NCBI GenBank assembly: GCA_027031765.1
Contig: JALVPN010000080.1
Coordinates: forward strand, 1 to 15,234
DNA: 15,234 nucleotides
From: Promethearchaeota archaeon
Lineage (GTDB): Archaea > Asgardarchaeota > Thorarchaeia > Thorarchaeales > Thorarchaeaceae
Reading direction: 5' to 3'
Shown: positions 1-12,026 of the stretch, piece by piece
Layout of the letters: each line of letters opens with the position of its first letter
Position numbering within the stretch: position 1 is the stretch's first letter
Program-made: the position numbers and the translations under genes
Notes under the pieces: model-generated
Database searches by the model: none
Seen by the model: the letters and a program-made list of their open reading frames with translations, nothing else
Told to the model about the DNA's origin: nothing

Positions 1-942
1 CCCCACACGACTGCGGAGCCGTTCCGTTATGGCGTCCGCCTCGCCCACCACGTCCTCCATGCTGACCGTGGTGTAGAACCGGTGCCATGTGCTCCAGACC
101 ACCGGTACCGTCTGCACTGTCCGGGCGCCCATCCTTGTCCTCACGAGTCCCAGGTACTCGTCAGTACACGCCTGAGGACTGTTGCCCACAAGGACTACCA
201 GCTCTTCGGAGATCGAGCTCCCACCCGGTGCAAGGCTGACACCACCCGCCACTGACATGGCCACCAGCTGTGCAATGGCTGGTGTGTCGCCCTCAGGGCA
301 GTAAGCAGCCACGACTGGTTCGTGGGAGAGCGCAGAGGCGAACCCTACGAGTACGCAGCGGTCTCTCAGTGCGGGCCCGTACAGCACAGTGAAAAGGTGA
401 CTGGTGTTCTCACCCCACGTCAGTGTGGCCGTCCTTGTGGGGTCGGCCGTGGAGCGTGGCAGCCGTAACATCCGTATCCTTGGTGACCCCCCACCGAGTG
501 TCTGGACCAGTCCCAGCCCGTCGGGGCCAGTGGAGAGTGGGATGATGGACTGGACGCTGGTCTCCTCTGCGCGACGGTTCCTGAACCTGACCGTGCACGA
601 GTACCCCCGTACACCTTCCCGTACGGCGAGCCGGATGTCGACCTCGGCGGTCTTCTCATAGTCCACAAGCCGCAGGACTGTCGCAATACCGCGTCCAGCC
701 CTGTCCTCAAAGTTCATGGAGCTGAGAGTGCGGAAGGTGAGCCTCCTTGAGTCGTAGACCGTGCTGCTGGTCTCCACCTGCACGTGCACCCCTCTCAGCA
801 ACTCCACTCCTGTTCCAAGGTCGACGAGTGTGACCTCACCGAGCGAGGTGTGGTACAGCACGGCAATGGTGCCGTTCTCAAGGCGTACGTAGTCTTCTGT
901 CACGGTGACCCTGCACTTGTCTGCTACTTCAGTCATTGACAT
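1..942 (-). CDS. Glycoside hydrolase family 36 (alpha-galactosidase)-like protein, N-terminal ~314 aa; runs off the window edge
   Basis: My own translation (not in the ORF track): the frame is open from ATG at 942 (alternatives 936, 960; GGTGGAG just upstream) to position 1. It reads MSMTEVADKCRVTVTEDYVRLENG...MGARTVQTVPVVWSTWHRFYTTVSMEDVVGEADAITERL. A beta-rich N-terminal region is followed by P-x-x-W-S-T-W-x-x-F-Y, resembling the P-x-G-W-C-S-W-Y motif that starts the GH36 TIM barrel. The catalytic aspartates would lie outside the window. Confidence 0.6.
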   Translation of the reverse strand, partial: MSMTEVADKCRVTVTEDYVRLENGTIAVLYHTSLGEVTLVDLGTGVELLRGVHVQVETSSTVYDSRRLTFRTLSSMNFEDRAGRGIATVLRLVDYEKTAEVDIRLAVREGVRGYSCTVRFRNRRAEETSVQSIIPLSTGPDGLGLVQTLGGGSPRIRMLRLPRSTADPTRTATLTWGENTSHLFTVLYGPALRDRCVLVGFASALSHEPVVAAYCPEGDTPAIAQLVAMSVAGGVSLAPGGSSISEELVVLVGNSPQACTDEYLGLVRTRMGARTVQTVPVVWSTWHRFYTTVSMEDVVGEADAITERLRSRVG

Positions 943-980
943 GCTCCACCCGCTGGACATCTGGACCGGAGGCGTGCGTC

Positions 981-1599: not shown

Positions 1600-2250
1600 T
1601 CATTGCTGCATGTCATCATTCCTCTCAGCAGCCCGGGCACGTCCTGCCCTGCGTCTGTGCTCCTCTTCGAGGCGTCGTGAACGGAGCCTGTCACGTGCAA
1701 CCTGGAGCCACCGGTGCACACGCGGTGCAAGGGCCGGGTCGAGTGTCATGGCCAGCTCGGCATATGCTATCGCCCGCTCGTCGTCCTCCTCTATGAAGTG
1801 CGCATTGGCCTTGTTATAGAGTGCCTCAGCATAGTCAGGTCGCAGTGCCAGGGCGTGAGTATACGCCTCCATGGCCTTCCGTCCCTCGCCGAGCCTGGAG
1901 AACGTGTTGCCGAGGTTGTTCCAGCACTCCGCGTCCTCGGGTTCCAGCTCCAGCGCCCTCTCGTAGCACTTCCTCGCACCCTTGAAGTCCGCGAGCATGT
2001 ACAACACGTTGCCCTTGTTGTACCAGACCTCAAAGACCATGCTGTCAATGGCCAGCGCCTCGTCATACGCCTTTTCCGCCTCCTCCAACTGGTCGCACTC
2101 TGTCAGTGCAACCCCGAGGTTGTACCATCCTTCTATGGAGTCGGGGTGCTCCTCAGTATACTGCCTGAGCAACTCGACGGCCTCGTCGCTCATGCCGCTC
2201 TCTATCAGGGCGCACGCCCGGCGGATCCGTTCGTCGACGTGGTGGGCCAT
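1600..2250 (-). CDS. Soluble TPR-repeat protein (~5 repeats, basic C-terminal tail)
   Basis: Canonical 34-aa periodicity: GWYNLGVAL..LEEAEKAYDEALAID; VWYNKGNVL..FKGARKCYERALELEP; CWNNLGNTF..RKAMEAYTHALALRP; ALYNKANAH..ERAIAYAELAMTLDP. Confidence 0.92.
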   Translation of the reverse strand: MAHHVDERIRRACALIESGMSDEAVELLRQYTEEHPDSIEGWYNLGVALTECDQLEEAEKAYDEALAIDSMVFEVWYNKGNVLYMLADFKGARKCYERALELEPEDAECWNNLGNTFSRLGEGRKAMEAYTHALALRPDYAEALYNKANAHFIEEDDERAIAYAELAMTLDPALAPRVHRWLQVARDRLRSRRLEEEHRRRAGRARAAERNDDMQQ

Positions 2251-2436: not shown

Positions 2437-3288
2437 TCATAGTGGTCGTCGTCGACGGAACCGTGTGGGCCTGAGTCCATGTCGTTGTAGGACTGACATG
2501 GCCCGGTCGACGCCAGAGCCGATGTCCTCCGGCCGGTGTGCGTCCGAGCCCACGGTAAAGCGTGTCACACCGCGCTCGACCAGCGCAGACACCAGCGCCC
2601 TGCCGGGCATCGTGTCGCCGAGTCCCCATCTCACTGACGAGGCGTTCACCTCTGGGACGACACCACATTGGCGCAGGCTCTCGGCCACGGGGTCTACGTG
2701 TCCCTGCCACGCGTCCTCGACCGCGACACCATAGTGTGAGGTACCGTACCTCCGGTATATGTCAAGGTGCCCCAGCACATCGAACATCCGTGACTCGACA
2801 CACTCTACGACCAGTCCGAAGTAGGTCGATACGGTCCTCTCAAGACTACTAGATGCGAAGATGGCCCTTGCCTCGCGCTCGACAGAAATGGCATGCCTGT
2901 CAACGATGTGGACGGAACCGATCACGAGGTCGAAGTCAACGTCAAAGAACCCGTCCGGGAGTGCGGCTGCAACACCACGGTAGTAGTCCACCTCCGCACC
3001 CAGTAGTACGACGAGGCCACTGTCTGCATACCTGTCAGATGCCCCCTTTACTGCTGCCTCGTACTCCACTAGCCACTCCGGTGACGCGGCCGGCACCCAC
3101 TCCTTGCCCACGCGGACAATGCCGTCACTACGCCCCGGGAATGTGTCCACGTGCGTTGTGAAGCAGACCTCAGCGAGCCCGCGGCGGACTGCCTGTGCAC
3201 AGAACTCGTCAATGCTCCCGGTCGCGTCCACCGAGAAGTCAGGGTGCACATGATAGTCGACGCCCCACCTCTCGGCCGGTCCTGCCAT
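2437..3288 (-). CDS. PHP-domain phosphatase, histidinol-phosphatase (HisJ) family
   Basis: PHP metal-binding motifs in the expected order: DYHVH, CFTTH, GAEVDY, D-x-x-IGSVH, DVLGHLD, EVN, GSDAH. GGTGAGG lies upstream of the ATG. Substrate cannot be determined from sequence. Confidence 0.88.
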   Translation of the reverse strand: MAGPAERWGVDYHVHPDFSVDATGSIDEFCAQAVRRGLAEVCFTTHVDTFPGRSDGIVRVGKEWVPAASPEWLVEYEAAVKGASDRYADSGLVVLLGAEVDYYRGVAAALPDGFFDVDFDLVIGSVHIVDRHAISVEREARAIFASSSLERTVSTYFGLVVECVESRMFDVLGHLDIYRRYGTSHYGVAVEDAWQGHVDPVAESLRQCGVVPEVNASSVRWGLGDTMPGRALVSALVERGVTRFTVGSDAHRPEDIGSGVDRAMSVLQRHGLRPTRFRRRRPL

Positions 3289-3326: not shown

Positions 3327-4565
3327 TCAGAGCGGCTCCGTGCACACATCCGTGGCTGCTGGCCCGTTTACCGGCCTCTCTGTCAGGAAGGTGGCGGCCA
3401 CCCCGCCGGCGAAGCTCGTTACCACGAGGAAGATGATGGAGGCAGCCAGTCCGTATGTGTCGCCGATCAGTCCAAATAGCCATGGCGCCAGTGCTCCTGG
3501 GACTGCGCCGATGGAGAACAGCACGCCGAAGGCGAGCCCCCGGGCATGGGGCGGACTTATCTCCGTCTGGTAGGCCTGGCTCGCCGGTACACCGGCAAAA
3601 TATGTGAAGCCTATGCCGACCAGCACCACGATGAGGGCTGGTAGGTCGAGGGACAGGTTCAGCAGCAGCAGACATGGTGCCAGCAGCAACATCGACATGA
3701 CAATGAACGGCACCCGTTTCCCGACCCGGTCGGACACCCGCGCAAACACGAGCTCGCCGACCAGTCCTGCGGTCAACATTATGGTGGCCAGTATCCCGGA
3801 CGAGAGGGGCTCATAGCCATACCGCAGCGTCAGGTACAGTGGCATCAGCAGGGTGGTACACCTGAACGGTATCCCTCTCAGACCGGTGACGAGGAGCACG
3901 AGTACGAAGTCTCTTGTCCATACACTCCCGCTGGTCTCACTGTCAGTATGACCGTCTGCCGCCCCCGGCGGTACCTGTGGGGCCACCCTGCTCCTGCGTG
4001 AGAACACCATGAGGTAGAGTGTCGGCACGAATACGACCAGCCCGAGCATACCGAGTACGACCAGCGACGGCCGCCAGCCACCGAGGACTACCATCAGTGC
4101 GCTCCCCAAGAAGGGTGTGACTGCCACTCCCACAAGGCCGCCTGCAGCCTGTAGTCCGACAGCCTGTGCTCGTTCCTCCTCTGGGAACCTCTCAGACAGC
4201 GTGGGGAATGCCGACGGGTGGTAGGGCGAAACACCGAGGCCGAGGAGTACCTGGGCCGCTACCAGTATCCAGAGCCCAGTGGCCAGACTCGTGAATAGTA
4301 CCGCGATGGCCGAGAGGAGCACGCTGGCCGGGATGAACACGTCTCTCAGTCCACGGTCACCCAGTGGCCCAACTATGATGTGACACGCTGTCATTGTGAC
4401 CACGACTGCGCTCGTGGCAATCCCTACCTCGGTCAGTGAGAGCGAGAGGTCGGCCATGATCTCGGACAGGAACGGCGACAGTGCACCCGTATATACGTGG
4501 TTGAGAAAGTGTGCGAACATACACGCTACGAGCACGGCGATGGATGCTTTCCGGGTCTTGTCCAC
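3327..4565 (-). CDS. Major facilitator superfamily transporter
   Basis: About 12 hydrophobic segments in two halves. Motif-A-like GPLGDRG and ARVSDRVGKR, plus YHPSAFPTLSERFPEEERAQAVG. Likely start is GTG 4565 (VDKTRK) after GGTGAG; the ORF track begins at 4610. Confidence 0.9.
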   Translation of the reverse strand: MDKTRKASIAVLVACMFAHFLNHVYTGALSPFLSEIMADLSLSLTEVGIATSAVVVTMTACHIIVGPLGDRGLRDVFIPASVLLSAIAVLFTSLATGLWILVAAQVLLGLGVSPYHPSAFPTLSERFPEEERAQAVGLQAAGGLVGVAVTPFLGSALMVVLGGWRPSLVVLGMLGLVVFVPTLYLMVFSRRSRVAPQVPPGAADGHTDSETSGSVWTRDFVLVLLVTGLRGIPFRCTTLLMPLYLTLRYGYEPLSSGILATIMLTAGLVGELVFARVSDRVGKRVPFIVMSMLLLAPCLLLLNLSLDLPALIVVLVGIGFTYFAGVPASQAYQTEISPPHARGLAFGVLFSIGAVPGALAPWLFGLIGDTYGLAASIIFLVVTSFAGGVAATFLTERPVNGPAATDVCTEPL

Positions 4566-4638
4566 CTGCGTCGACTCACCAGTAGAGCTGTACCGCCCGT
4601 TGGCGCCCACCCTAGATTAAGGTCTATCGATGCCGGTC

Positions 4639-4877: not shown

Positions 4878-6851
4878 TCAGAGCAGGCCGCACGTCCAGA
4901 GTACAATGCGGAGTGCTAGGCGTGCGTCCTGGCTACTATAGTACTCTCCGAGGAGTCCCCAGTTGTCGATGAAGAAGTTCGAGCCGGAAACGACAACTCT
5001 GCCGCCCCCGCTCGTCTCGAGTGCCCCAAGCACCGCATCACCCGCGTACTGGGCCAGCAGGACTGCGCCTGCGGGCAGGACTAGCGGTGCCCCATAGTAG
5101 TCAAAGGACGACACCCCCGTCGTGATGGGGTGGCTGTGAATGCTCGTCACTACGACCGGGTCACTACTGTCACGCCTGATGTAGTCGTCTGCAAGTGCAA
5201 TGCCTGTCCACTGGAGGAACTCGTTTGCGGACGCTATGTCGAGGCTTGAGTTGTCGAGGGCAGCCACGAACAGCCCGCCCCCATGTGTGACGTACTCCTC
5301 ATAGGCACTGGTCTCTTGGTCTGAGAACTCTATGGAGAAGAGGCTTGGTGATAGTGGGTCGGTCTCATTTGAGCCCCAAGCACAGGGGTCGAGGACGACG
5401 ACGCCGTCGTACCTGGCAAGTCTGTCAGCCGTTATCTCCGCCCTCTCCCTGATCTCGGTGACCGATATCCCACTGGCGGTGAGCAGCCTGTAGAGCTCCT
5501 TGAACTGTCCATAGGTCGTGTCAATGGTCCACGGTGTGTGTACTATGTCGAACGCCACCCTGGCCACCGCAGTCCCGGCTGTGATGTTCACCAGCAGTCC
5601 TGCCGTCCCAGCAGTCGCAGAGCTGAATGTGATGTTTGCCCAGTAGTTGGGCGTGCCGTCGTCAGGTATGGCTATTGTGAGCGTGACGTAGCCGGTCTGG
5701 TTCACGGTCACAGCACCGGGCAGGCTGAACACACCGGGTGTCGTTGACTGGACCTCGACACTATAGCTTGCAGTCCAGCTGTTGATGACCTCAATCTCGA
5801 ACGTGTAGTTGTCACCAAAGAAGAGGCGTTCAAAGTCGAGTGGCAGACTCCCCGGGTGGACGTATGTGACTGGTGGCCTGTTGCCCGTGGTGGCCTCCTC
5901 CTGCAACAGTGCGAGGGCGGCATCGGCATTGAGCTTCCCGGCCCCCACAACGTACTCCGGGTATGGCATCTCGGTCGCACCGGCCATCAGTACTGCCTTC
6001 ACCATCCCCGGTGTCCAGGGTATGTCGTTGGTCACGCAGTAATCAATCACTCTGGCCGCTGCCGCTGCGACCCGTGGTGCTGAAAAGCTCGTGCCGACGT
6101 ACATCTTGTTGCCGTGCACCACATAGCCCCTGGCTGCAATGTCGGGCTTCATTGTCCGGCCGGCCGTTGGGCCCCAGCTTGAGTAGTGTGCTGGCATCCC
6201 CGACTCGTTGAGGGCCGCTGCTGCGATTGCGTACTGGAACACTGCTGGTGAGTTGATACTGTTCCCCCGGATGCCGTGGTCTCCCTCGTTGCCGGCCGCC
6301 GCGACCACGACCACGCCGTGTCGGAAGGCCCACTCAACTATGTCTCTCATGGAGTCGTAGATGGTAGGAGTTGACCCAAGGCTGAGGTTGATCACATCGA
6401 CGCCCTGTTCCACGGCCCACTGGATGGCCGCAATGATTGCGGGTGAGGTCGCATGCCCCTCGTTGTCCAAGACCTTTGCAATGACGAGTCGTGCACTGCT
6501 CGCCCCGCTCAGTATTGTTTCGGCAACGATGGTGCCATGGGGTACGCCGCCTGGCCGTGTGTCGTCTGTTGACAGGTCGTTGCCGCTATACCCGTAGACT
6601 GTCCTGATGAAGCTCTGTCTGGCGACGACCCTCTGCTCCTCCACATAGTTCAGGTCGGCCCCGGAGTCGACCACTGCCACCCGCCCCGCGGTGCCGGTAG
6701 GTGCACCACCGGGCGGGTTCAAGAACAGGTACACCGAGGCACTCCCGATGAACAACATGAGGATGATCATCACGCCGACGAGTTTCACTACAGTGGAGGA
6801 GTCAGACTCCGCCGTCTCATTGTAGTAGGGTTCCCAGTAGTGAGTCCTCAA
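4878..6851 (-). CDS. Membrane-anchored S8 subtilase with Site-1-protease-like (MBTPS1/SKI-1) C-terminal domains
   Basis: Complete catalytic set: VAVVDSG (Asp, codon 6668-6666), HGTIVA (His), AAGNEG (oxyanion Asn), GTSFSAP (Ser), plus DVINLSLG, SSWGP and MKPDI. One N-terminal TM helix (VVKLVGVMIILMLFIGSASVYLFL). A beta-rich domain and an alpha/beta GATase-like domain follow the catalytic domain. Likely start is TTG 6851 with GGTGAT at 6855-6860 (657 aa); the ORF track begins at 7001. Confidence 0.88.
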   Translation of the reverse strand: MRTHYWEPYYNETAESDSSTVVKLVGVMIILMLFIGSASVYLFLNPPGGAPTGTAGRVAVVDSGADLNYVEEQRVVARQSFIRTVYGYSGNDLSTDDTRPGGVPHGTIVAETILSGASSARLVIAKVLDNEGHATSPAIIAAIQWAVEQGVDVINLSLGSTPTIYDSMRDIVEWAFRHGVVVVAAAGNEGDHGIRGNSINSPAVFQYAIAAAALNESGMPAHYSSWGPTAGRTMKPDIAARGYVVHGNKMYVGTSFSAPRVAAAAARVIDYCVTNDIPWTPGMVKAVLMAGATEMPYPEYVVGAGKLNADAALALLQEEATTGNRPPVTYVHPGSLPLDFERLFFGDNYTFEIEVINSWTASYSVEVQSTTPGVFSLPGAVTVNQTGYVTLTIAIPDDGTPNYWANITFSSATAGTAGLLVNITAGTAVARVAFDIVHTPWTIDTTYGQFKELYRLLTASGISVTEIRERAEITADRLARYDGVVVLDPCAWGSNETDPLSPSLFSIEFSDQETSAYEEYVTHGGGLFVAALDNSSLDIASANEFLQWTGIALADDYIRRDSSDPVVVTSIHSHPITTGVSSFDYYGAPLVLPAGAVLLAQYAGDAVLGALETSGGGRVVVSGSNFFIDNWGLLGEYYSSQDARLALRIVLWTCGLL

Positions 6852-7062
6852 GCAATCACCATCGCAGTGGCGCAGCAGTGCTGAACTGCATCCTACGGCC
6901 CGCCGGGAGCAACAAATGCAAAAGAACCTATCGGAGGCGAACATGCCTGTCCTCCCGTAGTGCGCAGCCCTTCCCACCGACCAGGACTCGGAAACCTTCA
7001 ATAGGTGGTGTGCCCTCCCCTGCTTGGAGCAGGGTATGAAGTGTCGACTCGCTACAATTTCA

Positions 7063-7068
7063 TTTATC
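7063..7068 (+). promoter_or_regulatory. Putative TATA box for the P-type ATPase gene
   Basis: TTTATC within an AT-rich patch about 40 nt upstream of ATG 7109, in a divergent intergenic region. Confidence 0.4.
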
Positions 7069-7108
7069 AGTCAGTGCGACACTCGACTACCTAGTTAGAG
7101 GGAACCAC

Positions 7109-10039
7109 ATGACCATGACTGACGCCGCCTCAAGTGTACCCTCCGAGGAGAACGCCTACCACGCCATTCCCCTAGAAGAGCTGCTCCGGGTGCTACGTGT
7201 CGACCCGACGACCGGCCTTCCTCAGGACGAGGTGAGGACGAGACTGGCCCAGTATGGCCCGAACAGTATCCCAAAGGTGAAGGGCTCATTCTGGAAGGTC
7301 TACCTCGCACCAATCCTGAACTGGCTGATCAACATCTATCTTGTGAGCTCCTTCGCACTCGTCATCATTGCATGGCTGTTCCCTATGCTTGAGGCCACCT
7401 CCGAGAACCCCATGGCCCAGGCTGGCTTCTGGCTCAGCATTGTAGCCGTAAACTGCCTTGTCGCCATATTCCAGCAGTTCAGGGCCCAGAAGAAGCTCGA
7501 GGCCCTTGAGAAGCTCTCTGCAGGGGAGGCCCGCGTGCTCAGGGACGGTGTCGAGAAGAAGGTGAACCCCGAAGAGATTGTACCCGGGGACATCGTGAAG
7601 CTCGAACAGGGCGACCGGATCCCCGCCGACGCGCGCATCATCACTGCCACCAACCTGACCACAAATGAGGCTTCGCTGACTGGTGAGAGCGTCCCCTCGG
7701 TGAAAGATGGGTCAGCTGTTGTGGCACCGGATGCAGCCCTCTCCGACCGTGCCAACATGGTCTTCTTCGGTACGTACGTGTCCACAGGCACCGCCACCGT
7801 GGTGGTGGTCGTCACAGGCGGCCGCACAGAGATTGGCAAGATACAGGGCGAGCTCGAGTCATTGAACACAGGGGACATCCCACTGCGCAAGAAGGTCAAC
7901 CTCCTCGCAAAGTACCTCGGCATAGCTGCACTCATCCTGCTGTTCACATCTTTCCTATGGGTGGTCGTCTTTGGCCCGCTGCTACATGGCGAGCCACTCG
8001 ACCTTGACACCACCGTCATCGCATGGCGCATGTCACAGGCCATCACCAGCGCCATGATGATTATGCCCATCAACATCCCGCTCCTCACAACCATCGTGCT
8101 CCTCACCGGCGTCCTCGCAATGGCACGGGAAGGGGTCATCATCAGGGACCTCTCCGCAGTGGAGAGCCTTGGCCGTGTCAGTGTCATATGCTCTGACAAA
8201 ACAGGCACCATGACCCGCAACCAGATGACCGTGAAGTTCTGCTGGGACACTGAGAACCTGTACTACATCACAGGCGATGGGTACGAGCCGAAGGGCGAGA
8301 TTTTCCGGCTCAAGGAACCGTCCGTACTGGACAAGGTCGATGCGACCGACAGGGTCCGCGTCACGGATGTCCTCGGCTGGAAGGGCCTGTACAGACTGAT
8401 CACGTCAGGTGGCATCAACAACGACGCGGAACTCACCGTGAGGGACATCCCCGGACAGGGCACGGTGTGGATGCCGATTGGAGACCCGACCGATGCAGCA
8501 CTCCTGACCCTGTTCCGCAAGAGTGGTCTCGACGAGCAGGAGCTCCGTGGGCGTTTCAAGGTCGTAAAGGAGTTCCCCTTCGACTCAGAGCTCAAGCGCA
8601 TGTCCAAGGTCTGTGAGGACGGCGACGAGTTCATCGCGTTCGTCAAGGGCGCCACAGAGGTCATACTACCACGGTGCACCATGAAGAACGCCCCCGGCCG
8701 TCCTGTCCCCCTCACCTCTGACGACATCGCTGAGATAGAGGCCCTGTCCACGGCATTCGCCGCGAAGGGCTATCGAGTGATATCAGTGGCCTACCGTCAG
8801 CTCAGGCGCGTCCCTGAAGGGCCCAGTGCACGTGACGTGGTCGAGAACGACCTGGTCTACCTCGGCTTCACATGCCTAGTCGACCCACCACGCGAGGGTG
8901 TCCGGGAGGCTGTCAACGCATGCCACAGTGCTGGCATCGAGGTGGTCATGATCACCGGCGATGCAGCAGCCACCGCCAAGACGATTGCCCGCGACCTGAA
9001 CAGCCGCGACGAGGACTCCCTCGTGGTGGAGGGCAGCCAGATCGAGTCGCTGAGTGAAGAGGACTTTGCTCGCGTCAACGTGTTCGCCCGTGTGAACCCT
9101 GCGCACAAGCAGGTCATCGTTGAGAGGTACCAGCGACTGGAGAAGGTCGTCGCAATGACCGGTGATGGTGTCAATGACGCCCTCGCCCTCGCAATGAGCG
9201 ATGCCGGGATTGCAATGGGGATTACGGGCACCGATGTCGCAAAGGAGGCAGCAGACCTTGTGATCACCGATGACAGCTTTGCCTCCATCGTCACCGGGGT
9301 GCACCAGGGCCGTGGCCTCTTCAGCAAGATCCGCAACATGATATACTTCTATGTGTCAATCAACCTCTTTGAGAGCATCCTGTTCTTCGGTGCACTGTTC
9401 CTCCTACCACCGTACTTTGTGTTCCTTGAGACCTGGCAGAAACTCTACCTTGTCGGTACCAGCCATGTCTTCCCGGGCCTCGCACTGGTGTTCGACAAGA
9501 CGTCACCGCACGCCATGGAAGAGAAGCCGCGCGACAGCGAAGAGATCATCACACGGCCCATTGCAGAGTTCATGGCCCTGCACGTAGTCCTCATGGCCGC
9601 CGGTGCTGCGACCGTGTACTTCCTGACCCTCACCGGTTTCATGGGCATCGTCGACATCTATCCCGGGAACCTCACCGGCTACTATGGCGGGATGGTCGAT
9701 GCACGGATGAAGGCTGCGGTCATGCTACTGACGGTCATCCTCTTGGTAGAGAGCTGGGTCGTCCTCATAATCCGCCGGATGAACATGCCGATGTCAAAGG
9801 CCCTGCGCGAGCCCGGCTATAGGCTCTACGTGGTACTGATAGGCCTGATATACGTGGCCCACCTCCTGCTCATGTATGTCCCCCTGGTACAGGCCATACT
9901 GGCAGTCTACGGCCTTGAGTTCTTCTTTGTCCCACTGACGCTCTGGGACTGGACGGTGTGCATTGTTGCTGTCGTCCCTGTGGTCATCGGCATGGAGGCC
10001 TACAAGAAGTACCTGCGCTCACGCGACGTGACCCTGTAG
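7109..10039 (+). CDS. P-type ATPase with a type II (SERCA-like) scaffold, 10 TM helices and non-canonical transport-site residues
   Basis: GDRIPAD, NEASLTGES (7679-7690), CSDKTGT (Asp363, 8195), GDPTDAAL, FDSELKRMS, KGATE, DPPR, MITGD, FARVNP and TGDGVND are all present. M4 reads PINIP, M5 SINLFE, M6 VGTSHVFP. Confidence 0.95.
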   Translation: MTMTDAASSVPSEENAYHAIPLEELLRVLRVDPTTGLPQDEVRTRLAQYGPNSIPKVKGSFWKVYLAPILNWLINIYLVSSFALVIIAWLFPMLEATSENPMAQAGFWLSIVAVNCLVAIFQQFRAQKKLEALEKLSAGEARVLRDGVEKKVNPEEIVPGDIVKLEQGDRIPADARIITATNLTTNEASLTGESVPSVKDGSAVVAPDAALSDRANMVFFGTYVSTGTATVVVVVTGGRTEIGKIQGELESLNTGDIPLRKKVNLLAKYLGIAALILLFTSFLWVVVFGPLLHGEPLDLDTTVIAWRMSQAITSAMMIMPINIPLLTTIVLLTGVLAMAREGVIIRDLSAVESLGRVSVICSDKTGTMTRNQMTVKFCWDTENLYYITGDGYEPKGEIFRLKEPSVLDKVDATDRVRVTDVLGWKGLYRLITSGGINNDAELTVRDIPGQGTVWMPIGDPTDAALLTLFRKSGLDEQELRGRFKVVKEFPFDSELKRMSKVCEDGDEFIAFVKGATEVILPRCTMKNAPGRPVPLTSDDIAEIEALSTAFAAKGYRVISVAYRQLRRVPEGPSARDVVENDLVYLGFTCLVDPPREGVREAVNACHSAGIEVVMITGDAAATAKTIARDLNSRDEDSLVVEGSQIESLSEEDFARVNVFARVNPAHKQVIVERYQRLEKVVAMTGDGVNDALALAMSDAGIAMGITGTDVAKEAADLVITDDSFASIVTGVHQGRGLFSKIRNMIYFYVSINLFESILFFGALFLLPPYFVFLETWQKLYLVGTSHVFPGLALVFDKTSPHAMEEKPRDSEEIITRPIAEFMALHVVLMAAGAATVYFLTLTGFMGIVDIYPGNLTGYYGGMVDARMKAAVMLLTVILLVESWVVLIIRRMNMPMSKALREPGYRLYVVLIGLIYVAHLLLMYVPLVQAILAVYGLEFFFVPLTLWDWTVCIVAVVPVVIGMEAYKKYLRSRDVTL

Positions 10040-10070
10040 CCTGACTGTGACGGACCTCAACAGTGGTGTC

Positions 10071-12026
10071 ATGACCGTGACACAGCTCGGTCCTGTGGAG
10101 CTACCACCTCCTACACTCCTACTCGCAGTGGTCCTGTGCCTGACGGTCATTGCCACGCTCATCGCATGGGCGTACCGAACGCGTCAGCACCAGGTGGCCG
10201 TCCTTGAGAGACTGCTGTCCCAACAGGCCGTTGTCACACTGCCGGAGCTCGCTCAGGCCCTCAGTTCGCCACGCCTGGACCGCCGGACGCTGGTTTCCAT
10301 CGCCCACCAGTGTGGGGCCGCCCTGCTCAGCGTCGGCTCATCAAAGGTGGTCTCACGGCCCCTCCTCCGACAGAGGTTACACCACCTGCTCACAGAAGAT
10401 GCAGTGGTCCACGTGTCCCGCGTGGCCGACCAGTACGACATCCCTGACGGCGTGGTGGCAGCCCTCGTCGAGGACATCGCAGAGGCGGAGCGTCTGGACG
10501 TCGTGCGCACAACAGATGGCGACTACATCTTCGTCCCAGACCTCAAGGCCCGTATCCGGGATGTGCTCGCCTTGCACGGCCGTGTCGACCTGGCATCCGA
10601 GGCACAGCGCATGCGGGTGGGTGCTGACGACCTCCTTGGGCTTGTCCAGCGCTGGGGGTGGCGCCTGCTCGAGACCGACAATAACGTGGTGTTCTCCGCC
10701 GACTGGCTCAAGGACACCCTGAGTCGCATTGTTTCCAGAGCCGGCCACCTTGACATCGGGGCCGCAGCCGAAGAGATTGGGGTCACCCGACTGGAACTGA
10801 TGCGGTTCATCCGAGACCTGGGATGGGAAATGGTGACCACAGACGATGGCCACTGGGTGCCCAGGAGCGTCCTGCTCAGCTCCCTGCGGTCAGAGCTGTC
10901 TGCCGGCCGTCCCATGCAGTATGGGGCGCTGGCCACAGCACTGGCGGTGGACCGGAAGACCCTGGAAGACCTCCTGGATGACCTTGAGGAGGAGCTCGAG
11001 GTGGTGCGCACCAGTTCCCACGTGTTCTCTGCCGTGTACCTGCGTCAGAGGCTTGCTGGGGAGCTACAACGCAAGGGCAAGGTCGACCCGGAGGAGGTTG
11101 CCCGCCGCTATGGTGTTGCCGCTGACAGTATTGTCGGGGCGATGCGCGGCCTCCCGGACACGAGAGTGGCGAAGAGTGGGACCGTGGTATATCTCCCGGC
11201 CCTCCGTAAGTGGGTCACCGACCGGGCGCTCCGAAAGGGTATCATCACCGCCCGCGACGCTGCCTGGTGGGGCCTGTCACAGGTCGAGATGTCCTTCCTC
11301 CTGAAACGGTTCGACCTGCGCTTCATCCTCTCAAGAGGGGGCGACTGTATTGCTCTCGCGTGGGTCAACCGGTATGTGGAGTCGGAGATCAACGCAGGGC
11401 GCACAGTGGACGTCGAGTCGTTGGCCAGCCGCTTTGATATTGAGCCTGGAGTCGCTGAGGCACTCCTGTCCCAGGTCGAGGCCGACGCGGTCTTTACAAG
11501 AACGGGCAGACTGGTGCCGCGACAGCAGCTGGTCAAGGAGCTGTCATCCACCCTCGACCGTTCGGGCTTCATCGACCCTACAACTACCGCCCAGGCCCTC
11601 GGACTGGAGCCCTCGGTGGTCTCTCACATCGTCGAGTCGCTCAGCCAGCACCCGCTGCGTACGCGCGCTGGGAACTACGTCACAGAAGAGGCCATCCTAC
11701 GTCGTGCACGCTGGCATCTCGACAACAAAGGGTTCTACGATGTCCATGCATGGGCCGTGCACCTCGACATCGAAGTGGAGGAACTGTTGGGCGTCCTGTC
11801 CCCTGTACTGAGACCTGGCGAGCACTTTGTGGGCCCTGCTGGCCTCCTGGTAACAGACGAGTTCGTGGCATCCCTCCGCCGACTGGCACGCCGCCCTAAT
11901 GGACTCCCTGTGACCACTCATGCAAAGCACCTTGGGATGCGGCGTGGGGCGCTCATGGCACTGCTGCGTGACAGCGTGGAGGGGAAGTACGAGTCGCGCT
12001 CTGACAGGTACGTGTCGAGCACCTGA
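10071..12026 (+). CDS. Single-pass membrane protein with ~11 tandem winged-helix-like repeats (UFL1/DDRGK1-like)
   Basis: One TM helix (TLLLAVVLCLTVIATLIAWAY) followed by repeats of about 55 aa: helix - G-x-[VIL]-[DT] - helix - helix - beta hairpin (T-x-D/x-G-x-[YVW]-[IV]). Start at ATG 10071 (or GTG 10047), 31 nt after the ATPase stop. The repeats are visible in the sequence; the family assignment is inference. Confidence 0.8.
   Translation: MTVTQLGPVELPPPTLLLAVVLCLTVIATLIAWAYRTRQHQVAVLERLLSQQAVVTLPELAQALSSPRLDRRTLVSIAHQCGAALLSVGSSKVVSRPLLRQRLHHLLTEDAVVHVSRVADQYDIPDGVVAALVEDIAEAERLDVVRTTDGDYIFVPDLKARIRDVLALHGRVDLASEAQRMRVGADDLLGLVQRWGWRLLETDNNVVFSADWLKDTLSRIVSRAGHLDIGAAAEEIGVTRLELMRFIRDLGWEMVTTDDGHWVPRSVLLSSLRSELSAGRPMQYGALATALAVDRKTLEDLLDDLEEELEVVRTSSHVFSAVYLRQRLAGELQRKGKVDPEEVARRYGVAADSIVGAMRGLPDTRVAKSGTVVYLPALRKWVTDRALRKGIITARDAAWWGLSQVEMSFLLKRFDLRFILSRGGDCIALAWVNRYVESEINAGRTVDVESLASRFDIEPGVAEALLSQVEADAVFTRTGRLVPRQQLVKELSSTLDRSGFIDPTTTAQALGLEPSVVSHIVESLSQHPLRTRAGNYVTEEAILRRARWHLDNKGFYDVHAWAVHLDIEVEELLGVLSPVLRPGEHFVGPAGLLVTDEFVASLRRLARRPNGLPVTTHAKHLGMRRGALMALLRDSVEGKYESRSDRYVSST

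Follow-up and report, generated by a model that had tools for sequence, protein, structure and literature searches.

UFL1 and DDRGK1 together make up an E3 ligase of an unusual, scaffold type, which acts on ribosomes at the endoplasmic reticulum, and the origin of this system is poorly understood. The human scaffold comprises seven winged-helix (WH) domains, WH1' of UFBP1 (DDRGK1), the composite pWH-pWH' and WH1-5 of UFL1; it is anchored via the transmembrane (TM) helix of UFBP1, and UFC1 is bound by helix alpha1 of UFL1 (Makhlouf et al. 2024, PMC10937380). Binding to the human 60S ribosomal subunit involves the C-terminal domain of UFL1, its peptidyl transferase centre (PTC) loop, and all of the WH domains except WH1' (PMC10937380). 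The eukaryotic array is described as a non-catalytic, TM-anchored scaffold whose WH domains make protein contacts (PMC10937380). Homologues of UFL1 and DDRGK1 in Asgard archaea have been reported in one sentence, and a UFM1-independent role was proposed for them (Picchianti et al. 2023, PMC10183829). Here, we describe a gene at positions 10071-12026 of contig JALVPN010000080.1 (assembly GCA_027031765.1), from an Asgard archaeon of the Thorarchaeaceae, which encodes a membrane-anchored protein with an array of 11 winged helices related to those of UFL1. The window analysed is this entire contig of 15,234 nucleotides (nt), and the assembly measures 2.95 Mb and is 95% complete. With a probability of about one half, we read the protein as a UFM1-independent, membrane-tethered, cytoplasm-facing docking scaffold of the UFL1/UFBP1 winged-helix type, a variant of the Asgard module noted by Picchianti et al. 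2023 (PMC10183829). No description of the TM-anchored 11-WH family, its link to an ATPase gene, or its pattern of loss was found in the literature.

The features of the gene and of its product are as follows.

10071-12026, + strand: coding sequence of the membrane-anchored WH-array protein, 651 amino acids (aa); ATG at 10071, stop codon at 12024-12026, with the N-termini of homologues aligning near this ATG
10110-10178, + strand: single N-terminal TM helix, residues 14-36, with a predicted cytoplasmic continuation to residue 51 and a basic flank containing the invariant R38
10188-10355, + strand: WH1, residues 40-95; membrane-proximal, basic and divergent in sequence
10356-10541, + strand: WH2, residues 96-157; an acidic unit whose wing carries the conserved motif TxDGDY(I/V)xVP
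10461-10619, + strand: stretch most similar to UFL1, residues 131-183; from helix 3 and the wing of WH2 into the start of WH3, aligned to PF09743 positions 28-82
10542-10697, + strand: WH3, residues 158-209; best-conserved unit, 48% mean pairwise identity
10698-10862, + strand: WH4, residues 210-264 (AlphaFold2, hhalign)
10863-11030, + strand: WH5, residues 265-320 (AlphaFold2, hhalign)
11031-11192, + strand: WH6, residues 321-374 (AlphaFold2, hhalign)
11193-11354, + strand: WH7, residues 375-428 (AlphaFold2, hhalign)
11355-11519, + strand: WH8, residues 429-483 (AlphaFold2, hhalign)
11520-11684, + strand: WH9, residues 484-538 (AlphaFold2, hhalign)
11685-11855, + strand: WH10, residues 539-595 (AlphaFold2, hhalign)
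11856-12023, + strand: WH11, residues 596-651; basic in all family members, its wing ending the protein at residue 651

The open reading frame (ORF) is uninterrupted over its 651 codons, and a GTG at 10047 is an alternative start. Hydrophobic residues 14-36 are preceded by a 13-residue N-terminal tail and followed by RTRQH. The family alignment, here called A1, comprises nine sequences that are 28-39% identical to the query. An acidic N-terminal tail and a basic flank behind the TM helix are present in all nine homologues, and by hydropathy most full-length homologues have one N-terminal TM helix. Because of this distribution of charge, the positive-inside rule indicates an N-out/C-in topology with the bulk of the protein facing the cytoplasm. 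The AlphaFold2 model built on A1 (mean predicted local distance difference test, pLDDT, 88.7) contains a helix spanning residues 14-51 followed by 11 winged-helix units up to the last residue, 651, each with the topology H-(E)-H-H-E-E, and all residues past 39 fall within these units. When the 11 units were cut from A1 and compared by hhalign, most pairs within WH2-WH11 matched with 80-98% probability (E down to 3e-14). By these profiles WH2-WH11 are mutually homologous, and WH1 is a winged helix by structure only. One N-terminal TM helix followed by about 11 winged-helix units of about 55 aa had been claimed in an initial annotation made from the letters alone; model and profiles bear out both the number of units, far above chance, and their fold. 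A scan of the protein against NCBIfam returned no family.

Several comparisons connect this array to UFL1. The Pfam model E3_UFM1_ligase (PF09743) matches the protein with 32.6 bits (E 8.4e-8), above its cut-off of 23.2, the best stretch being residues 131-183, which cover only model positions 28-82 of 272, or about 55 positions. The same model matches all nine homologues above its curated cut-off, with a best E of 4.6e-12, and is the only family common to the nine; ordinary helix-turn-helix (HTH) families give scattered matches among them, mostly under their cut-offs. A single-sequence search of the Protein Data Bank (PDB) with the WH-array protein returned nothing significant, and a HMMER search with the A1 profile returned one significant entry, the human DDRGK1-UFL1 chimera 8b9x (E 4.7e-7). 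The alignment to this chimera crosses the joint between DDRGK1 and UFL1 without a break. The stretch that the initial annotation had likened to the N-terminus of UFL1 (10494-10619, residues 142-183) lies inside the PF09743 match and coincides with the residues that HMMER pairs with the UFL1 portion of 8b9x_A, and this likeness is thereby confirmed.

Profile searches and profile-profile comparison point in the same direction. In an unbiased search of a library of 1.84 billion representative proteins, the A1 profile retrieves presumed UFL1 proteins at E of about 2-4e-4, together with a DDRGK-domain protein, P0067, at E 4e-4. Among the presumed UFL1 proteins, P0063 has a full-length PF09743 match of 262 bits, and P0060 and P0066 have N-termini that we take to resemble UFL1. 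Compared directly by hhalign, A1 and these three sequences are related with 96% probability (E 1.6e-9). A protein-atlas feature search also pointed to a cluster of eukaryotic UFL1, but its value of 0.75 is too low to count as evidence and gives a lead only.

The predicted structure agrees with the profiles. The top five matches of a Foldseek search of the PDB are all UFL1 chains (8ohd_A, 8qfc_B, 9gy4_E and 8b9x_A/B; E 3e-11 to 9e-9), and superposition on 8b9x_A with VIA-align gives Z 12.5 over 228 residues, compared to Z 8-9 for matches to single winged helices. Behind UFL1, the C-terminal WH1-4 of SelB follow at E 1.8e-5 as the second-best structural class, and ESCRT-II at about 1e-2 to 3e-2, much weaker than UFL1; the EAP30 model of ESCRT-II (PF04157) has no Pfam match. 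The PCI model (PF01399) has no match at E<=10, and single units superpose on subunits of the CSN and the proteasome lid at Z 8-9, a value equalled by many HTH regulators. The resemblance to UFL1 is therefore real, as sequence profiles, profile-profile comparison and structure all agree, and the possibility raised at the outset that the best matches would be ordinary HTH regulators, or that the fold would not be winged-helix, did not materialize, since Pfam, 8b9x and Foldseek all prefer UFL1 or DDRGK1.

The register of this relationship is ambiguous because all of the repeats are alike. The best hhalign match of the array to eukaryotic UFL1 pairs WH9-WH11 with UFL1 residues 36-179. A fixed register that placed the DDRGK1-UFL1 split in WH2 was dropped, as HMMER points to WH2-WH3, VIA-align to WH3-WH6 and hhalign to WH9-WH11. 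The protein is thus related to the UFL1-type repeat and is not collinear with UFL1. Both this array and UFL1 (PF09743; PDB 8b9x, 8c0d, 8ohd, 8qfc and 9gy4) consist of tandem PCI-like winged helices in a non-catalytic, scaffold-type architecture, and they have in common the wing motif T-x-D-G-x-x-I-x-P and a G-R-(I/V) that opens the next unit. The Thorarchaeal chain differs in that it holds 11 complete winged helices, whereas UFL1 has a partial one and five more; the partial N-terminal WH of UFL1 is completed in trans by DDRGK1, but all 11 Thorarchaeal units are complete in cis. Unlike UFL1, the Thorarchaeal protein carries its own TM anchor. It lacks the UFC1-binding helix alpha1, its N-terminus being the short tail and the TM helix, and it ends at the wing of WH11 without the C-terminal helical domain and PTC loop. 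The initial annotation had also proposed a DDRGK1-like anchor, a claim that stands in part. The order of N-terminal TM anchor, helix and cytosolic winged helices is alike in both proteins, but the DDRGK Pfam model (PF09756) matches neither the WH-array protein at E<=10 nor the nine homologues at E<=0.01, and the weak DDRGK matches of the same genome sit on other contigs. The helix behind the TM segment is short, in contrast to the long arm of UFBP1, and the TM anchors of the two proteins may have arisen by convergence. The UFM1-interacting motif (UFIM) that UFBP1 carries between its helix and WH1' was not identified in the Thorarchaeal protein, no search with a model of the motif having been made.

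These features suggest how the protein might work. One N-out/C-in TM helix would hold a continuous chain of 11 winged helices at the inner face of the membrane, and the array would most likely serve as a docking site through which at least one protein partner from the cytosol is brought to the membrane. WH2-WH4 are the most conserved units of the family, and for this reason they are the likely principal docking surface. Protein binding is favoured over nucleic-acid binding because family members range from neutral to acidic, the full proteins having net charges of -26 to +1. Winged helices are classical DNA and RNA binders, and the protein could instead tether DNA, a plasmid or mRNA to the membrane, in the manner in which the WH array of SelB (PDB 1lva, 2uwm) holds SECIS RNA. 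The rank of SelB among the structural matches, its tandem winged helices, the superposition of single units on MarR, PurR and Z-alpha domains at Z of about 8-9, and the basic WH1 and WH11 of every family member are in line with such a role. The SelB array, however, is basic and RNA-binding, and no sequence similarity to it was detected; in the Thorarchaeal family, only WH1 and WH11 are consistently basic, and WH2, WH5 and WH8 are consistently acidic. Conserved residues are chiefly structural Trp, Gly and Leu and do not form a basic recognition helix, and the HTH matches are sporadic and below cut-off, compared to PF09743, which matches all members. A nucleic-acid tether is accordingly very improbable on this evidence.

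The WH-array protein is encoded directly behind a P-type pump, and the elements of this neighbourhood are listed below.

7063-7069, + strand: possible archaeal TATA box, TTTATCA, 40 nt upstream of the ATPase start, proposed from reading the sequence
7109-10039, + strand: P2-type (SERCA/SPCA/LMCA1-like) ATPase, the upstream neighbour, with PINIP in TM4 and a 31-nt spacer to the WH gene

The catalytic motifs of the ATPase are intact and its best PDB matches are LMCA1, SPCA and SERCA. Its TM4 reads MPINIPLLTT; Ca2+ pumps have PEGLP at this site in TM4. At 13 of 13 loci, from at least nine genera, the two genes share a strand, and the WH gene either follows the ATPase gene after a spacer of 0-31 nt or overlaps with its end. 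On inspection of the sequence, the 31-nt spacer holds no TATA-like element and one is present upstream of panB, the gene that follows, and the ATPase and WH genes are probably co-transcribed. The window also holds a block divergent from the ATPase and conserved across the Thorarchaeaceae, with genes for a subtilase (S8) at 4878-7001, a major facilitator superfamily (MFS) transporter at 3327-4610 and a HisJ-type PHP phosphatase at 2437-3288, all on the minus strand. Two TPR-repeat ORFs, 981-1730 and 1600-2250 (minus strand), overlap by about 130 nt, possibly because the downstream ORF truly starts further in or because a frameshift splits a single TPR gene. The ORF at 1-960 (minus strand), 320 aa long, stays open to the contig end and has no Pfam match. 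The WH gene and panB are separated in one Thorarchaeal chromosome by an inserted gene of 310 aa that is read from the opposite strand (L015:9948-10880, minus strand).

Full-length orthologues of the WH-array protein occur in about 20 of the 86 Thorarchaeaceae genomes searched and in 9 of 16 genera. Two further genera of the family have paralogue-level matches only, and a search of 16 genomes from other Asgard families yielded none. Only 21 proteins of the 1.84-billion library score below 1e-30 with the A1 profile. Between genera, the WH-array protein is 28-39% identical, the ATPase 61-69% and panB 73-78%, so by these identities the WH gene evolves much faster than its neighbours. Five related genomes lack the WH gene and have the orthologous ATPase (61-66% identity) followed directly by panB. 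In the ATPase tree, genomes with and without the WH gene are interspersed, and well-supported branches force at least two changes, one of them within a genus. The simplest reading is that the WH gene was ancestral at this position and has since disappeared repeatedly; it is an accessory gene of some Thorarchaeaceae, dispensable and fast-evolving, and not a core gene. A second, weak match to the WH profile in the genome that carries the window (E 8e-6; G000:C60:14775-15125, plus strand) lies within a 317-aa open frame.

The constant position of the gene and the spacer without a TATA-like element might also mean that the WH-array protein is an accessory single-pass subunit or regulator of the ATPase, comparable to phospholamban/sarcolipin, FXYD or neuroplastin/basigin, whose WH array would couple the pump to cytosolic factors. 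Single-pass partners recur among P2-type ATPases. The five genomes that keep the ATPase without the WH gene show, however, that the pump works alone, the TM helix that would have to contact it is weakly conserved, and unrelated neighbouring genes are equally syntenic. Paralogous TM-anchored WH proteins (L052:5680-7551, plus strand, 623 aa; L053:4734-7034, minus strand, 766 aa) are encoded in two other Thorarchaeal genomes at unrelated loci that are not beside an ATPase. A complex prediction that paired the TM segment (residues 1-43) with residues 20-976 of the ATPase gave a score of 0.00, which counts neither for nor against binding. We regard a pump subunit as rather unlikely.

A docking scaffold of the UFL1 type would fit with the wider family. 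Distant relatives found with the A1 profile include large proteins that combine a signal peptide and a TM helix with, where domains were scanned, PKD or beta-helix domains; in these proteins the WH match starts directly after the TM helix. In P0025, P0027, P0033, P0058 and P0059, all large membrane proteins, a UFL1-type WH array directly follows the TM helix, and such an array appears from sequence to be a recurring cytoplasmic tail module of large membrane proteins. For three distant TM-WH relatives, the encoding contigs are short and hold no informative neighbours. In other distant relatives, which are soluble, the array is fused to TPR or STAND modules. By analogy, the arrays behind the TM helix of large surface proteins and the TM-anchored eukaryotic scaffold would both support a scaffold function here.

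In another family of Asgard archaea, 62 of 68 genomes encode soluble proteins of about 790 aa (L022-L033; for example L022:433-2799, minus strand). These combine, in one chain, N-terminal Cys-rich zinc ribbons, matches to DDRGK (56 bits), E3_UFM1_ligase (74 bits) and PCI (82 bits), and a VPS28-like C-terminus. By hhalign (95%, E 4.8e-8) they and the Thorarchaeal protein fall into one WH repeat superfamily, and the phylum is the same, but they differ in the zinc ribbons, the PCI- and VPS28-like parts and the stronger DDRGK and UFL1 Pfam matches; the Thorarchaeal protein, in turn, is TM-anchored, has winged helices only after the TM helix and is tied to a P-type ATPase gene. Against the three presumed UFL1 proteins, the soluble and the Thorarchaeal forms score about equally by hhalign. 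On the Pfam evidence, the Thorarchaeal form is probably a side branch, and the soluble Asgard proteins would be the closer candidates for the ancestor of UFL1 and DDRGK1.

The relationship to UFL1 also suggests a more literal counterpart of the human complex, a single-chain archaeal UFBP1-UFL1 clamp that docks large ribosomal subunits at the membrane, scaffolds Ufm1-like conjugation, or both. The homology itself and the parallel between TM helix, helix and WH array on the one hand and the UFBP1 TM helix, its helix, WH1', the composite WH and UFL1 WH1-5 on the other speak for this, as do the contacts that the human WH domains other than WH1' make with the 60S subunit (PMC10937380) and the Ufm1 homologues published for nine Asgard clades (PMC12962969). 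Yet the protein is made up of the TM helix and the 11 winged helices alone, without equivalents of the UFL1 helix alpha1, C-terminal domain or PTC loop, and the 95%-complete genome, which holds a single ThiF-type gene, has no match to Ufm1 (PF03671) or UFC1 (PF08694) at E<=10, nor to UQ_con (E2) or ubiquitin. A gene found in about a quarter of related genomes and lost within genera would be odd for a ribosome-handling device, and the soluble Asgard proteins fit the UFL1 and DDRGK models far better, the Thorarchaeal form being a side branch with a possibly convergent TM anchor. Such a clamp is unlikely. Of the initial annotation's proposal of a membrane-anchored single-chain archaeal counterpart, the archaeal host (an Asgard archaeon), the TM anchor and the UFL1-related array hold, but a UFM1-linked function is not supported here; the suggested clamping of ribosomes and scaffolding of ubiquitin-like conjugation are analogies only. 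Less likely still is a surviving form of the clamp: a TM-anchored arc of winged helices that predates UFM1 would have docked a large particle, either the large ribosomal subunit or another, on the membrane of the archaeal cell, and the eukaryotic two-protein E3 would have arisen through fission of this chain inside one WH domain, with the E2-binding helix and the C-terminal domain acquired later.

The absence of detected Ufm1, UFC1, E2 and ubiquitin, together with the same role proposed by Picchianti et al. 2023 (PMC10183829), supports a UFM1-independent docking scaffold, and several points weigh against it. Absence of a Ufm1-like modifier is not proven for this genome because in 301 Asgard genomes no match to the Pfam Ufm1 model exceeds the cut-off, despite the homologues published for this group, and for the same reason a Pfam search for Ufm1 is unusable as a test of co-occurrence. 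The TM segment is conserved at only 27% identity and may be a mere anchor, and the predicted template modelling score (pTM) of 0.50 leaves the geometry between domains uncertain and the overall shape of the chain unreliable. The adjacency to the ATPase could be an inherited position and is weak evidence for functional coupling because the block of S8 gene, ATPase and panB is syntenic even without the WH gene. The only sequencing run found to contain the window DNA is labelled "hydrothermal vent metagenome" and is probably the source sample; this lookup listed no RNA run, and no expression data were found.

The significance of the family is bounded by its rarity, by the existence of closer Asgard relatives of UFL1 and by a docking function that we infer from architecture and charge. 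It nevertheless provides a defined protein for a partner search, and its constant place behind an unusual P-type pump and its repeated losses are testable leads. As a concrete archaeal form of the scaffold, a membrane-anchored single chain of 11 complete winged helices in a genome without detected UFM1 machinery, it supports the view that a membrane-proximal winged-helix scaffold is older than UFMylation.

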